Assembly: GCA_964016885.1 (NCBI GenBank)
Contig: OZ024754.1
Span: 5,332,001-5,396,000, forward strand
Origin: Eledone cirrhosa
Lineage: Eukaryota
DNA length: 64,000 bases
Direction of reading: 5' to 3'
The notes under the pieces: generated by a model
The model's input: only the letters and a program-made list of their open reading frames with translations
Databases searched by the model: none
Told to the model about the DNA's origin: nothing
Position numbers and translations under genes: made by a program
Shown: piece after piece, positions 469-62,470 of the stretch
Layout of the letters: each line of letters starts with the position of its first letter
Numbering within the stretch: the first letter of the stretch is position 1

Positions 469-686
469 GTTATTCCGGGTTGAATCGGAGGTAACCACAG
501 TAAGTAAGGTACTCAATACATTGCAGTGTATAAAAGTTTTAATATAGATGAGATTCTACAGGACTAGAACTGTTTCATTCTTTAGAAATCATCCTTCTTT
601 TTTTTATACATAAAACTCTTTTCGTTTGTTTAGAGATTCCTGATGATTTCTAAAGAATGAAACAGTTCTAGTCCTGTAGAATCTCA

Positions 687-747: not shown

Positions 748-1150
748 GCATATCCAATCATCTATCAACATGCACCACATGAATATGGTTTTTAATATAT
801 ATGTTTTGGTAGCGATTCGAGTAGATATAGATACACAAATAAAAAATACGTTTGCGTGTATTTGTTTTTCTGATTAAATTTTCCTTCTTTTTTTTATACA
901 TAAAACTCTTTTCGTTTGTTTAGTTTCTGCTTTCGTGCAGACACTTCTATATTTGTATGTATTACGTCTAGATTAACATGGACATGTATCTCCACAACTC
1001 TACCTAGAGATCTCTGTCATATATATATGTGGCCGGACACCTTCAATTGAACAGACACGCACATACTCATACATACAGGTACATACCTGTACATACCTGT
1101 ACATACTCATACATACAGGTACATACCTGTACATCGATATATATATATAT

Positions 1151-7392: not shown

Positions 7393-8260
7393 ATCAACAT
7401 CGTCGCCATCACCGTCGTCATCATTTATCAGCAGCAGCGGTGGTATCGTCGTCGTCGCCGCCATCATCATCATCGTCATCATTTATCAGCAGCAGCGGTG
7501 ACATCGTCGTCGTCGCCATCATCATCATCGTCATCATTTATCAGCAGCAGCGGTGGTATCGTCGTCGTCGCCGCCATCATCATCGTCATCATTTATCAGC
7601 AGCAGCGGTGGTATCGTCGTCGTCGCCGCCATCATCATCATCGTCATCATTTATCAGCAGCAGCGGTGGTATCGTCGTCGTCGCCGCCATCATCATCATC
7701 GTCATCATTTATCAGCAGCAGCGGTGGTATCGTCGTCGTCGTCGCCATCATCATCATCGTCATCATTTATCAGCAGCAGCGGTGGTATCGTCGTCGTCGC
7801 CGCCATCATCATCATCGTCATCATTTATCAGCAGCAGCGGTGACATCGTCGTCGTCGCCATCATCATCATCGTCATCATTTATCAGCAGCAGCGGTGGTA
7901 TCGTCGTCGTCGCCGCCATCATCATCGTCATCATTTATCAGCAGCAGCGGTGGTATCGTCGTCGTCGCCGCCATCATCATCATCGTCATCATTTATCAGC
8001 AGCAGCGGTGGTATCGTCGTCGTCGCCGCCATCATCATCATCGTCATCATTTATCAGCAGCAGCGGTGGTATCGTCGTCGTCGCCGCCATCATCATCATC
8101 GTCATCATTTATCAGCAGCAGCGGTGGTATCGTCGTCGTCGTCGCCATCATCATCATCGTCATCATTTATCAGCAGCAGCGGTGGTATCGTCGTCGTCGC
8201 CGCCATCATCATCGTCGTCATCATTTATCAGCAGCAGCGGTGACATCGTCGTCGTCGTCA
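7320..8260 (+). repeat. 55-58-bp minisatellite built from CAT/CAG/CGT triplets, with a 342-bp higher-order period
   Basis: Unit TCATTTATCAGCAGCAGCGGTGGTATCGTCGTCGTCGCCGCCATCATCATCATCGTCA, ~16 copies. Variant GGTGACATCG at ~7497, ~7839 and ~8240. Confidence 0.9.
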
Positions 8261-8418
8261 TCATCATCATCATCATCATTATTATCATCATCATCATCAT
8301 CATCGCCGTCATCATAGGCATCATCATCATCATCATCATCGTCGTTGTAGCTATCATCATCCTCATCATCATTATTATCATTGTCGTTGTCATCATCATC
8401 ATCATCATCATCGCCATT

Positions 8419-10106: not shown

Positions 10107-10840
<734 letters not shown>

Positions 10841-10870
10841 TAACAACAACAATAATAATAATAATAATAA

Positions 10871-12400
10871 TCTTGATCGGGGGAATGTGATAAGAGAACT
10901 TGATCAAGAGGAAACTTACAAATATTTAGGTGTTTGTGAAGGAGACGGAATCAAGCACTCGACAATTAAGGTAAGGATAAGGAAGGAATGTTACAGTAGA
11001 GTAAGAGCATTCTTAAGAACTGAATTGAATACAAGGAATAGGATCGATGCCATAAACACTCTTGCCATACCAGTAGTAACCTACAGTTACAATGTCATCA
11101 ACTGGTCAAGGACAGAGATCCGTAGGCTCGTTACAAAAATTAGAAAATTCTTAACCATGCACTGAATGCATCACCCTAAGGCAGATACAGACAGAATATA
11201 TCTCCCTAGGAAAGAAGGAGGACGTGGGTTAATCCAGTTAGACATTGCGTTGAAAACTGCAACAATTGGATTATCTACATATCTAAGGGAAACACATGAT
11301 TGGATAATCAAACTCGTTTTGAAACACAAAAGCATCAAAAGATCATACTCCATTACAAAAGATGCACAAAGATACAGTAATGGACTACAAATTTCAGAAG
11401 TTCCATTTACTGCTGAAATGAAAAGCACAGAAAAAGCAAAGCAGGTAAAAGTAACTGCCAAGAAAGAACTGCTACAGAAACTGGGTGAGAAATGGAAAGA
11501 AAAGCCTCTGTATGGAAAATACCCAGAAACAGCTAACAATCCTGATGTTGACAAAACTTTAACCCATCAGTGGTTGGAATCCTCTGGACTGAAATAGAAA
11601 ATTGAAGGACTGATTATATCAGCACAAGATCAGTATCTGCCAACAAAAGATTACCAAGCCAACATAATACAAAATGGATGCAACCCATTATGCTGTGTAT
11701 CTAAAAAAACAACCAGAGACCATTGATCATATAATTTCAATGTGCAGTCCTATAGTTCCAACCGAATACCTAAATAGGCACGACAGAGCTGCACAATACA
11801 TACATTGGATAATGTGTAAGCATTTTGACCAGCCCCATCAAAATAATTGGTTGGAGCATCAACCACCTCCCGTACTTGAAAAAGATCACATCTCAATCTT
11901 GTGGAACTTTAGCATCCAAACAGACCGAAAAATAGATGCATATAGACCTGATATAATAATGAAGGACTTTAAAAAGAGGGTATGCCTGCTAATTGATATG
12001 TCCGTTCCAATAGACAAGAATGTATCTATAAAAATATTTGAAAAATTGAGCAAGTATAAGGACCTGGAGATAGAAATTGGAAAAATGTGGAAATTGAGAA
12101 CTAAAACAATACCAGTGGTTGTAGGCGCTCTAGGAATGATACCTAAGTGATCTAATGATTACTTATCACAAAACCTAGCAAACCCGCGTATAGGAGAAAT
12201 ACAAAAGATAGTACTAATGGGAACTGCCCATATACTAAGGAAGATTCTGTCAATATAATTACATCACAAGTCTAAACACCTAAAGATGTGTGTGTATGTA
12301 TGTTCTTTCTTGAATATGGCGGACCTTGTTGTCTCTTGAGGTCACTGGTTGTGACTTGGTGATAACTCGTATGAACATAAAGCAATATAAATGCAACTGT
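10871..12400 (+). mobile_element. Second, different R4/Dong-clade element, pseudogenised (RT C-terminus, CCHC finger, RLE)
   Basis: Motifs YKYLG; HPKADTDRIYLPRKEGGRGL; ETIDHIISMC...RHD; RPDII...DMSVP...EK..KYKDL. In-frame stops at ~11163, ~11595, ~12148 and a frameshift at ~11700. Natural stop 12256-12258; ends in (TAA)n. Confidence 0.92.
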
Positions 12401-12415
12401 AATAATAATAATAAT

Positions 12416-12596
12416 AATTGTTTCTACCTTTGGCACAAGGCCAACAATTACCCAGTGCATTACTGGTACTTTATTTTATCGACCCCGTAAGGATTAAAGG
12501 CAAAGTTAACCTCGGCGGGATTTGAACTCAGAATGGAAAGGGCCGTAGCGCTTTGCTAGAAAGAATAGTGCCCGACCCTCTATCGATACTGCCAAT
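12416..12596 (-). mobile_element. tRNA-derived SINE, young family
   Basis: A-box-like TGGCAGTATCG, B-box GAGTTCAAATCC, conserved core GCCTTT(C)ATCCTTACGGGGTCGATAAAATAAAGTACC, (ATT)n tail. Confidence 0.9.
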
Positions 12597-12650
12597 AATA
12601 ATAATGAAATGATTGTGTACAGTGCTCAGGTGCACTACAACAGTAAGGTA
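12597..12650 (-). mobile_element. CR1-type LINE 3' tip
   Basis: aataatgaaatgattgtgtacagtgctcaggtgcactacaac matches the 3' end of the CR1 fragment at ~48855-48897. Confidence 0.7.
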
Positions 12651-13202
12651 CAAAAGTAACATGTCTCTTGTTTTTTTGTCTATTAACATGAAAGTGATAT
12701 ACATTCGGGACCGGATTAAATGGGGTGGATGGGTAAAGGAGGTTATTACCAAGGGCTGCCCTGCAGTAGGACCCCTACCAGTTACAGCCGTAGCAATTTA
12801 TTTGTGCCCTGAGCTGGGCTCTTTTAGTTTAGGATGGTTAGACCCCTTACGGGGTCGATAAGGGAAAGTACCAGTAAGTATTGTCATTATGGTCATTGTT
12901 ATCATCGTCATCAACATTATCATCAATATAATCCTTCTCATCAACATCATCATCACCGACGTCATTATCATCATCATCACCGACTTCATTATCATCATCA
13001 TCATCAAGATCTTCATCATCACTATTATATGTGAAGGCTTCACTTGCACGAAAAAGTAGCTCTTTAGAAAATGCGTTAGATAAAGTTTCTAAAGTCTACA
13101 TTACGTATTAACCAAATATAAATTAAAAACAGATGCGCCCACACACACACACACACAACACACACATATATACATATATATATATATAAATTTTTTTTTT
13201 AT

Positions 13203-13406
13203 ATAGATGAGATTCTACAGGACTAGAACTGTTTCATTCTTTAGAAATCATCATGAATCCTGATGATTTCCAGGATTCCTGATGATTTCTAAAGAATTAA
13301 ACAGTTCTAGTCCTGTAGAATCTCATCTATATTAAAACTTTTATACATTGCTATGTATTGGGTACCTTACTTACTGTGGTTACCTCCGATTCAACCCGGA
13401 ATAACG
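13203..13406. mobile_element. Family A fold-back element with two mutated HHR copies
   Basis: Minus copy ~13209-13260 has C3>A (AUGAUGA); plus copy ~13273-13324 has G12>U (UAAAC). Tail ends cggaataacg|(TA)n. Confidence 0.8.
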
Positions 13407-13430
13407 TATATATATATATATATATATATA

Positions 13431-13563
13431 GTTTTGCGAGGTTTTTTATATGAAATCGTGTGTCGAAACAAATATTGTTATACTTGGGGAGGGTCATATT
13501 TGTGTAATATTGCCAGAATTAATAACAGAACACACTCACACAAATATGACCCTCCCCAAGTAT

Positions 13564-13571
<8 letters not shown>
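13431..13571. mobile_element. Family C (TA)n island with 34-bp perfect inverted repeat
   Basis: Arms 13472-13505 / 13538-13571. Relatives at 40741-40850 and 62355-62470. Confidence 0.65.
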
Positions 13572-53934: not shown

Positions 53935-55170
53935 TAGCTGCCGGTGATTTTCTTGGCAATTTGGTACACAGAGCGCATGACATTGCGTGCTGCAGCTGCT
54001 TCCGCCTCCTCCGCCTTACCCTCAAGCCACATTCGTTTGTCCTTTTGGGCGCTGCGTTTCATCTCCTTGTCCTTGTCAACATACTGCTGATATACCTTGA
54101 TGGCCTCTGGGGTAGTGGCATGCCTCTGCTGGTGTAGGGCTTTCCTTTCATTAATCAGCTGCCAGGTGTTGTCGCTGACCCAAGCTTCTCTGAGGGACTT
54201 CCTGTAGCCCAGGATTTCTTCCCCTGCAGCTTACATGGTCTTCTTCATTTCCTCCCACCAATTGACCGAGCCTGGTGCAGACTCCTCAAGGACAGAAAAT
54301 CTGTTCCTCAAAGCAGCCTCGAAGTGTGCTTCTGTGTCACCGTTCTTCAGCTTGGTAGTGTCGAAACGCCTTGTAGTGAGTGCTCTCTTCTTCTGCTTCC
54401 TCAGTCTGATTTTAAGTTTGGTAACAGACAGATAGTGGTCACTGCAGACACCTGTGCCCCGGTAGACTCGGACGTCCTGCAGGCAAGGAGCTCTCCAACT
54501 TGGGCCAATCGCAATGTGGTCTATTTGCGTCTTGGTCCTGTGGTCGTTCGAAGCCCATGTGACCTTGTGGATGTTCTTGTGGTCAAATAGTGACGAGCCG
54601 ATTTTCATATTGTTCATGGCACAGAACTGGACAAACCTATCCCCGTTGTCCGTGCGGTTTCAATAAGCATGGGGGCCAAGGACATGTTCAAAGACAAACC
54701 TGCTTCCCCCGATCTGTGCGTTCATGTCTCCCATGATGATCAGCATGTCATGACGTGGGGTTTTGTTCACAACATCTTGTAGTTGCTGGTAGAAAGCGTC
54801 CTTGTCATAATCGTTATGTTCGTTGGTTGGAGCATAGCACTGAGCTATGGTGACCTTTGCATGTGATGTGGTAAATATTGCTGTCATTAGGCGTTCGTTG
54901 ATAGGAGTCCACTCCTCAAGGGCACCACTGGCAGCCCTGTCCATGATGATTGCAACTCCATCTGGGTGGGTCCCGTTCTGACGGCCTGAGAACAGGATGG
55001 TCTTGTTTTCATGGACACACTTCCCAGAGTCAGTCCAGCGGACCTCGCTGAGGCCCAAGATGTTAATTTTGTAGGCCTCCATTTCTCCGATAACTTGCGC
55101 AAGTTTGGATGGTTGGTACATAGTTCTTATGTTCCAATATCCAATACGTGTGGTTGTTTTTGCAGACAGA
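53935..55170 (-). mobile_element. RTE-clade LINE: AP endonuclease domain plus linker, pseudogenised, RT absent
   Basis: IGYWNIRTMY...LGLSEVRW...CYAPT...GDMNAQIG...NG...TW...QIDHI...SDH. Stops at ~54660 and ~54231; linker [23 protein letters not shown]. Confidence 0.92.
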
Positions 55171-55173
55171 ATT

Positions 55174-55251
55174 CTTACGGGGTCGATAAAATAAAGTACC
55201 AGTAATGTACTGGGTATTTTGCTGGCCTTGTGCCTAAAGTAGAAACAATTA
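55174..55251 (+). mobile_element. SINE 3' fragment abutting the RTE 5' end
   Basis: Core plus tail. Confidence 0.85.
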
Positions 55252-55396
55252 TATACATTATAACACTTTTTTTAAAAAGAATTGTCCCTCTATTTGTTTC
55301 AATAATGTTATCTTTTCAATATTGTCACCTTGACGAATCAAAAAAGAGAAACAGACCTTTAGATATATTTTCCGTGCTATTTCCAACTTCACCTTT

Positions 55397-55596: not shown

Positions 55597-55600
<4 letters not shown>

Positions 55601-55756
55601 TATAGAAGAGCTTCTACAGGACTAGAACTGTTTCATTCGTGAGAAATCATCAGATCTCCCTTTTGATTTATCACGAATGAAACAGTTCTAGTCCTGTAGA
55701 AGCTCTTCTACATTAAAACGTTTATACTCTGCTATGTTTAAACGTTTATACTCTGC
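55597..55756. mobile_element. Family A subfamily fold-back element
   Basis: Inverted arms ~55603-55650 / 55664-55710. Minus-strand core CUGAUGA UUUC UCAC GAAU GAAA CAG..CUG UA GAAGCUC; 5' stem I arm lost at the junction. Confidence 0.75.
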
Positions 55757-59475: not shown

Positions 59476-59569
59476 CAAAGAGATATATATAATAAATATA
59501 TATATAATAAATATGGTTTTATAAAGATAATTTCCATTTATTAATATCATTGATATATATATATATGTT

Positions 59570-60396: not shown

Positions 60397-60583
60397 TGGT
60401 GGATTGGCAGTATCGGTAGAGGGCCGGACGCCATGCTTTCCAGCATAGTTACGTCCCTTTACGATCTGAGTTCAAATCCCGCCGAGGTTGACTTTGCCTT
60501 TCATCCTTGCGGGGCCGATAAAATAAAGTACCAGTAATGCACTGGGTAATTGCTGGCCTTTTGCCTAAAGTAGAAACAATTAT
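60397..60583 (+). mobile_element. SINE, young family
   Basis: Full consensus. Confidence 0.9.
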
Positions 60584-61432
60584 TAATATTCGAAAAGCTC
60601 AGATTACACGGGGCTGTGGGCGGGCCCCATCGCGTACCAATACATTAGTTAAATACCATTCTTTCATCTGATACAACACAATAAAGACTAAAGTGTTTAA
60701 AAAAAATAAAAATAAATTCATGTTGAAGTCTTTATTGTATTCAGGCAGTAGAGCGATACCTTTTTTTTATTTATTATTATTATATATATATGTGTGTATA
60801 AGTGTGTATATATATATGTGTGTGTGTGTCTATAAGTGTGTGTACGTGTGTATACATATATGTGTGTTTGTGTGTAAAGAAAAACTGTATATATGATATT
60901 GTTTTATATTTTTCCGTGTATGTTTTTCTTTGGTTATTATTTGTTGTTTGTGTTTTTGTGCCTTTTGTCACAAGTAATTAGTCTGTTATTAAAATGTTTT
61001 GTTTACCTGTTTTCATTCTAAAATTAGAAAATGTTAAAACGCACCGTAAATCTCCATAAAAGACAATGATGAAATAAATTAAAATATGAAATGAAATGAT
61101 CTCTTTAATCACAGGTGAGATATTTGAAAAGCCTTCAATTGGCATTTTTAAAACATTGTTACTTAAAAACAATATATGAAGTAGCGACATTTCAGTTGAA
61201 TTAGATTTGATAAATATAAATATAAAATGAAAATAGATGAAGTAATAAAAAATAGATAAAAATCACGAGACATTCTTCAAGATTCATCACAGAGAACAAA
61301 CAAAGAAGACGAAGATTGAGACATATTTATATAAGATGAAATATCAAAATTCCTAAACAAATAAACAAAGTAACAAAACAAACAATTTAATTCTAAGAGA
61401 AACAAACAGGGAAGATTACTATAATAATAATA

Positions 61433-61945
61433 GTGTTTCTACTTTAGGCACAAGGCCAGCAATTACCCCAGTGGATCACTGGTACTTTATTTTATCGACC
61501 CCGTAAGGATGAAAGGCAAAGTTGACCTCGGCGGGATTTGAACTCAGACCAAAAAGGGACGTAACTCTATGCTGCAAAGCATGGGGTCTGACCCTCTACC
61601 GATACTGCCAAATAATTGTTTCTACTTTTGGCACGAGGCCAGCAATTACCCAGTACATTACTGGTACTTTATTTTATCGACCCCGTAAGGATGAAAGGCA
61701 AAGTTGACCTCGGCGGGATTTGAACTCAGACCAAAAAGGGACGTAAGTCTATGCTGCAAAGCATGGGGTATGACCCTCTACCGATACTGCCAAATAATAA
61801 TGGTTTGTTATATAGGCACAAGACCAGCAGTTTGGGGAGAGGGGAAAGTCGATTAAATCGACCCCAGTACGTTTCTGATAGTTTATTTTACCGACCACGC
61901 AATGATGAGAGGTAAAGCTAACCTTGACGGGATTTGAACTCAAAA
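61433..61945 (-). mobile_element. Head-to-tail SINE dimer (61433-61612, 61613-61795) plus an older SINE (61800-61945)
   Basis: Two ~180-bp copies share the private variant ctcagaccaaaaagggacgtaa. Confidence 0.9.
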
Positions 61946-62354: not shown

Positions 62355-62469
62355 AACAGGTGCGTGTATTGGCAGCATGGACCCCTTATGGCAGCATGGC
62401 CCTCCCAAAGTATACCAATACCTGTTTCAACACACGATTTCAGATAAGAAATCTTGTGTGTAAAACGAA

Positions 62470-62470
<1 letters not shown>
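62355..62470 (-). mobile_element. Family C island
   Basis: Reverse complement gaaatcgtgtgttgaaacaggtattggtatactttgggagggccatg matches 13452-13497. Confidence 0.65.

Follow-up and report, generated by a model that had tools for sequence, protein, structure and literature searches.

Near the start of a 64,000-nt stretch of Eledone cirrhosa DNA (the window, numbered from its first letter) lies a hammerhead sequence complete in its core and helices, and the question that it raises is whether this copy works as a ribozyme where it stands or has been carried there inside a mobile element. Our answer, which we give with considerable confidence, is that 634-684 is a real hammerhead sequence and likely a passenger in a truncated insertion of a Penelope-like element (PLE). 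We also regard it as quite probable that the complete hammerhead belongs to a 226-bp insertion in (TA)n that is likely the pLTR end of an EN+ PLE, and that it is inactive in place, as the folding predictions suggest.

A complete type I hammerhead motif at 634-684

By sequence, descriptor scan and pair table, the forward strand carries a complete type I hammerhead motif at 634-684. Helix I comprises 6 bp (634-639/679-684) and leads into the core CUGAUGA (640-646), a U647·U658 mismatch at the base of helix II (positions 10.1-11.1), the UUC/GAA pairs of helix II (648-650/655-657, closing the loop UAAA at 651-654), GAAA (659-662), helix III (A662-U677 plus CAG/CUG, 662-665/674-677) and GUA (676-678), with the cut predicted after A678. 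The 8-nt loop of helix III (666-673) reads UUCUAGUC and is centred on CUAG (668-671). Every part of the conserved hammerhead core (CUGANGA, GAAA and NUH) is present, and three helices can form around it as 6 bp, U·U plus 3 bp, and 4 bp, with the open ends in helix I. The G10.1-C11.1 pair, which is usual and not obligatory, is absent; U647·U658 stands in its place, as it does in an axolotl retrozyme hammerhead (PMC7229834). The preliminary description of this DNA had named the catalytic core, which both the sequence and the descriptor scan confirmed, as well as helix II with its UAAA loop and the CUAG centred in loop III, which are likewise there.

A strict descriptor, with helices of at least 6, 3 and 3 bp, matched the window once, at 634-684, and matched none of 200 block shuffles. 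Relaxing it gave two matches, the copy at 44.6 kb being added, with a match in 1 of 200 shuffles, and an exact pattern gave three matches where 0.00 were expected. Rfam returned no match to 634-684 at the gathering threshold and, at E up to 10, 16 matches of which none was to a hammerhead family; the Rfam miRNA matches at 548-686 were set aside as a mere reflection of the inverted repeat described below. The free-fold energy of the motif is unremarkable (z -1.17, with 29 of 200 shuffles equally good). The AUGs within and just after it, read from the sequence, run into stops after a few codons.

An inverted pair of arms in a TA repeat

The main point, overlooked in the preliminary description, is that a high-copy retroelement has inserted here as a truncated, inverted copy: the motif is the shorter of two head-to-head arms in a 226-bp insertion lying in (TA)n. 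Along the forward strand, the locus consists of a (TA)n tract (411-467), the long arm on the minus strand (468-593), a filler (594-633), the short arm on the plus strand (634-693) and (TA)n once more (689-744, the first bases being common to the arm end). The short arm holds the hammerhead and about 15 nt beyond it, merging into the repeat through its own TATAT, and the long arm holds a hammerhead clipped at G5 (the equivalent of 642) followed by a tail that ends at a CG/TA boundary 89 nt after the cut site. Positions 542-593 are the perfect reverse complement of 642-693, so the long arm contains an antisense, 5´-clipped second copy of the hammerhead. The 40-bp filler (+) exactly matches flanking host DNA at 884-923 (+), its likely source, with partial microhomology at its start (586-593 compared with 876-883). 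Because 594-633 exactly copies 884-923, G633 is a base of the filler, and the helix I of the family is therefore 6 bp rather than the 7 bp assigned to stem I earlier; the G633-C685 pair is an accident of the junction. In the contigs of other copies (sets X1, X2 and X6, introduced below), the base before A634 is C, with 30 records in X1 (agreement 0.65), 26 in X2 (0.70) and 1 in X6.

The same build recurs at the other loci for which the motif had been claimed. All four were recovered (at 0.5-0.7, 13.2-13.4, 44.6-44.7 and 55.6-55.7 kb), and all are head-to-head inverted insertions in (TA)n, spanning 140-230 bp, with a junction that differs at each. The arms are unequal at all four loci, and the tail, about 67-74 nt long, is found on one arm only. 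Beyond the cut site, short arms continue for about 15-22 nt, to the point where TATATT belonging to the element blends into the TA run; in three of the four loci the long arm continues for 89 nt and stops at CG/TA. Likewise in three of the four, the short arm extends further in the 5´ direction than its partner. Seven of the eight outer ends abut TA repeats, the share of the window within 5 nt of a run of (TA)4 or more being 15%.

At the second locus (13201-13406), comparison of the arms gave a short arm on the minus strand and a long arm on the plus strand, joined by a small fold-back of hammerhead 5´ sequence, and each arm has the single core mutation reported for it before, C3>A (13254) in the former and G12>U (13298) in the latter. 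At the third (44605-44746), picked up by the relaxed descriptor, the short arm (minus) has an intact core and a 4-bp helix I, and the long arm is tail only, beginning 13 nt past the cut site (the equivalent of 691). The fourth (55598-55737) is, by arm comparison, a subfamily variant with loop II UCAC, U682>G and A686>U in both arms and with the tail broken off. Neither of its arms has the 5´ strand of helix I, since they start at C3 (short) and U7 (long); U682>G sits in the 3´ strand of that helix, its partner unseen. The only one of the eight arms that combines a full core with the full 6-bp helix I is 634-693.

Assignment to the PLEs rests on this architecture and is likely. EN+ PLE insertions are described as having an inverted 5´-truncated copy, a one-sided tail, a (TA)n bias and a pLTR hammerhead (PMC8557442, PMC3846280, PMC4209133; the same features appear in PMC2377424 and PMC6765202), and we find here a head-to-head 5´-truncated copy, a one-sided tail, a hammerhead in the terminal repeat and a TA target. 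At about 70 nt the tail is twice the published 30-40 bp, and target-site duplications are unreadable in (TA)n. A Pfam scan of 150 of the 170 complex ORFs, drawn from 718 stop-to-stop frames of at least 45 aa, found no RT or GIY-YIG domain in the window, and the same scan missed evident LINE remnants. About 30 nt upstream of the hammerhead are visible in other copies, and truncated copies would not be expected to carry an RT/GIY-YIG ORF.

Other repeats in the window

A second family (family B, the 634-684 family being family A) has the same build in (TA)n and lies at 35353-35539, 35572-35760, 41418-41616 and 45442-45541. Its arms are palindromic, its one-sided tail ends at CG/TA 97 nt past the cut, and it keeps the 3´ half of a hammerhead (GAAA, a 5-bp helix III with a GAGCUC palindrome, and GUC), the CUGANGA half having been lost at the fold. 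The two families share an 11-mer, at +40 versus +37 from the cut, and its occurrence at a like distance is significant (30 of 5000 shuffles; 20 of 5000 by a BLAST-like score). Homology between them by permissive alignment is not (1329 of 5000 shuffles).

Several further inserts border on TA runs. At 36409-36440 (+), within a 250-bp insert flanked by such runs, there is a minimal-hammerhead-like motif (CUGAUGA, a short helix II, GAAACGUC) in which helix I is not evident. A third small family, seen at 13429-13567 and 62396-62470 and adjoining the second locus, has an inverted arm and a GAAAC...UA half-motif beside TA runs. Adjoining the third locus, at 44316-44566, is a 72-bp inverted repeat around a CUGAUGA...GAAA motif with no clear helix I, a fragment of which recurs at 59515-59548. 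A 105-bp inverted repeat around 190 bp (26877-27272, 98% identical) and a 61-bp palindrome (41284-41344) both start at a TA run.

The window also holds more than 12 copies, 80-95% identical, of a SINE-like repeat about 180 bp long (including 12419-12600, 15619-15830, 17000-17180, 30740-30918, 32496-32684, 53460-53649, 60398-60589 and 61421-61801), a piece of which lies within a 349-bp tandem of four units at 30844-32238 (units 99% identical), and a 58-bp minisatellite of 15 copies with 94% matches (7407-8287). Broken LINE-like coding remnants occur at 10153-12150 (+) and 54138-55271 (-), the first of which looks like a restriction-like endonuclease end and has no Pfam match. The sole Pfam match among the scanned ORFs, Exo_endo_phos at 54663-55271 (E 6e-06), is unrelated to the hammerhead family.

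The copy is predicted to be hidden by its own antisense arm

For 633-685 alone, equilibrium prediction gave pair probabilities of 0.89-1.0 for helix I, 0.005 for helix II and 0.04 for helix III, and the hammerhead fold was predicted to cost 3.4 kcal/mol relative to the best fold. In transcripts modelled from seven upstream starts (468-610), the mean pair probability was 0.0 for helices I and II and below 0.01 for helix III, and in the modelled 468-700 segment the arms formed a 52-bp hairpin with an MFE of -103 kcal/mol. These models suggest that the upstream antisense arm hides the 634-684 copy in a hairpin and that the copy would neither fold nor cut in place, a predicted sequestration that had escaped the earlier reading.

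The idea, raised before, that the CUAG palindrome in loop III could allow dimeric folding is sound and is already in print for PLE hammerheads (PMC4209133, PMC6765202). The CUAG-mediated helix III dimer is predicted at -12.8 kcal/mol, and a pair of monomer hairpins at -2.8 kcal/mol. Permuting the loop gave an equally good dimer energy in 105 of 840 cases (72 of 630 for family B), and we regard these modelled energetics as suggestive. Published PLE hammerheads cleave weakly and as dimers (PMC4209133), and that of an anole PLE requires the element's protein, with cleavage dispensable for insertion in vitro (PMC11167929).

Variation among copies

The preliminary description read the differences between loci as preserving structure and took the source family to have been under selection for the ribozyme. 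At 55.6 kb, the short arm does keep UUC/GAA around the changed loop II, UCAC, but the long arm breaks helix II (C650>A), and with the 5´ strand of helix I missing and U682>G present in both arms, preservation of structure does not hold for the whole motif. Selection on the source family is still likely, although it is not shown by the four local loci, where 0 of 14 pairs among the eight arms have changed on both sides. The changes at the fourth locus that are common to both arms were for that reason counted as inherited, two being in loop II and one in helix I; the chance that at least two of three such changes fall in loops is P 0.13, and that of none falling in the core is P 0.47. Three changes are private (C3>A and G12>U in the core, C650>A in helix II), with none in loops, as in neutral decay after insertion. 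The evidence for selection from the local loci is weak.

Contigs from other copies add to this evidence. Among 13 listed contig variants none falls in the core, helix II or helix III, in a listing that also misses the known loop II variant and is thus insensitive in this region, and in two contig variant rows the unchanged UUUC/GAAU strands enclose a third form of loop II, CUUU. The 3´ strand of helix I varies among subfamilies, with U682>G at 11-12% of depth and partners unphased. Loose ends reading GGCT or GACT before 637, considered as compensation for 3´ strands of the GAAGCC/GAAGUC type, were not counted as covariation because of their agreement of 0.4, their lack of phasing and an offset of one base in register. 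This outside support for selection is modest; the hammerhead has likely been kept by selection in the parent family.

A very abundant dispersed repeat

Four contig sets from three studies were aligned to 468-693, two of which (X1 and X2) come from one sample and the others (X5 and X6) from two other organisms. The numbers of contigs placed were 9438 (X1), 10285 (X2), 2 (X5) and 17 (X6), figures from contigs only, in which depth is not copy number and the ends of molecules are unreadable. Among 178 distinct joints, the 15 shown all connect 576-593 with 634-660, and no contig among those listed covers the whole of 468-693. Depth in the filler is 0-149, compared with up to 1.8 million elsewhere in X1, and as it is contig-based, the thin cover proves nothing. 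Loose ends at the tail in X1 and X2 (470 and 478) are TA-rich and run into TA repeats. The family is a dispersed repeat of very high abundance, and each insertion makes its mirror arm afresh. Its motifs had no match in metagenome, viral and genome contig collections or in the supplements of PMC8557442 and PMC13282606, and the portions of the literature consulted on hammerheads with Penelope elements and on dimeric hammerheads yielded nothing on this family.

Alternative readings of the insertion

The abundance of short copies, together with the lack of any ORF seen, would also suit a non-autonomous, non-coding derivative (a non-LTR retrozyme or solo pLTR) that spreads via small self-cleaved, possibly circular RNAs using PLE enzymes in trans, its arms crossing the cut site by way of a religated template. 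In its canonical 6-bp helix I and in the U·U that opens helix II, the motif is similar to the hammerheads of retrozymes (PMC7229834), and retrozymes have been proposed to be PLE derivatives (bioRxiv 10.64898/2026.07.22.740005). We nevertheless consider this origin unlikely, given that head-to-tail tandems, the defining form of non-LTR retrozymes, occur at none of the four loci and that tail ends (470 and 478 in X1/X2) enter TA repeats, not a next monomer.

Far less probable still is a working ribozyme, retained by the host, that cuts its transcript after A678. The 634-684 copy is identical to the family majority, like a young insertion, and core positions are among those at which its sister copies have decayed. 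Pairing with the antisense arm extends over 52 bp (-103 kcal/mol for 468-700), and in the isolated motif the pair probabilities are already as low as about 0.005 for helix II and 0.04 for helix III. What speaks for function is that this is the sole arm of the eight with a full core and 6-bp helix I, to which the junction adds a seventh pair. We give similarly little credence to MITE-like or fold-back DNA transposons, or assembly artefacts, with an incidental hammerhead match. Palindromic inserts, the lack of any listed contig spanning 468-693 and the filler almost without depth might be read that way, but the arms are unequal and the centres differ at every locus, none of 200 shuffles attained the descriptor match, independent contigs contain head-to-head joints, and family B is built in the same way around a different half of a hammerhead.

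A possible route of insertion

Under the preferred reading, a truncated PLE insertion, the arm ends bear on the template. Of the eight arms, seven begin at 634-644 and continue through the cut site, and the eighth begins at 691; none begins at 679, which is a start that contig alignment is incapable of revealing for a short arm. In contig loose ends of other copies, a pyrimidine-rich tract ending in CAG precedes the AUUC of helix I, and this tract resembles a splice acceptor. In D. virilis, the Penelope intron ends at helix I (PMC4209133). The anole PLE in vitro has two RT starts that bound the tail, cuts and extends both strands at AT-rich targets and uses uncut RNA (PMC11167929). The likely template here was RNA that had not been cut and that had a discrete boundary at the ribozyme edge; we met no description of such 5´-end clustering in the excerpts consulted from work on PLE hammerheads.

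The element's GIY-YIG endonuclease might nick a TA repeat, after which RT would begin copying uncut pLTR RNA from two points, with the interval between these points forming the tail. cDNA would be made on both target strands, or one cDNA would fold back, with synthesis ending at the hammerhead 5´ edge and the two cDNA ends being joined with templated filler or by a fold-back. The ribozyme's task in a full-length parent would be the processing of tandem transcripts, probably with weak activity and as a CUAG dimer or with protein help, and selection would act in that parent rather than at 468-693. Simple fold-back alone does not explain the longer short arms at three of the four loci. Both sides lie just 3´ of loop II in 5 of the 15 listed joints, 11 of the 16 listed X1/X2 pieces stop at 577-580 (the loop II edge), and the palindromes of family B centre between the lost core and GAAA; the joints beside loop II and the family B centres fit a snap-back on helix II. 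A bolder version, which we put forward tentatively and think rather unlikely, is that a pLTR intron ends at helix I and its splicing swaps the helix I partner and gates cleavage, that the many short copies arise from an uncut RNA species or from a halt of cDNA synthesis at the acceptor, and that the mirror arm is often primed by snap-back on helix II. If this were true, the hammerhead fold would be a structural hinge that shapes PLE insertions, rather than a cutter.

Comparison with known hammerhead-bearing elements

Animals carry hammerheads in PLE ends in massive numbers, and 634-684, one of very many copies, adds little to them as a ribozyme. Its small value is mechanistic, in that the arms of a young and abundant family run beyond the cut site and come to a halt where the ribozyme begins on its 5´ side, so that mapping of its ends could bear on the role of PLE hammerheads.

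Neptune- and Hydra-type EN+ PLE insertions (PMC8557442, PMC3846280) share the head-to-head truncation, the single tailed arm, a junction with palindromes or fillers, the (TA)n target and a type I hammerhead near the end. In contrast to those elements, no ORF is seen here, the inserts are only 140-230 bp and the tail is about 70 nt. With the D. virilis Penelope hammerhead and other PLE hammerheads with a small helix III (PMC4209133), it has in common the type I topology, the palindromic loop III, dimer competence, a sequence resembling a splice acceptor where helix I begins on its 5´ side and an occurrence mostly as single dispersed motifs or opposite-strand pairs. It differs from them in its short helix II, in U·U for G10.1-C11.1, in the lack of an extra base after A9 and in a helix III with three extra pairs and an 8-nt loop. 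PLE minimal hammerheads typically have G10.1-C11.1 and a long stem, whereas helix II here resembles that of the axolotl retrozyme (PMC7229834). The Poseidon element PAc of Anolis carolinensis (PMC11167929) likewise has an AT-rich target, two 3´ end points that bound the tail and a template uncut by the hammerhead, but the PAc ORF begins inside the hammerhead, whereas the AUGs here soon meet stops. Metazoan non-LTR retrozymes (PMC7229834) are alike in their type I hammerhead, in the lack of coding capacity seen and, in one axolotl family, in the U·U; in contrast to them, the family described here has no head-to-tail tandem monomers at any of its four loci.
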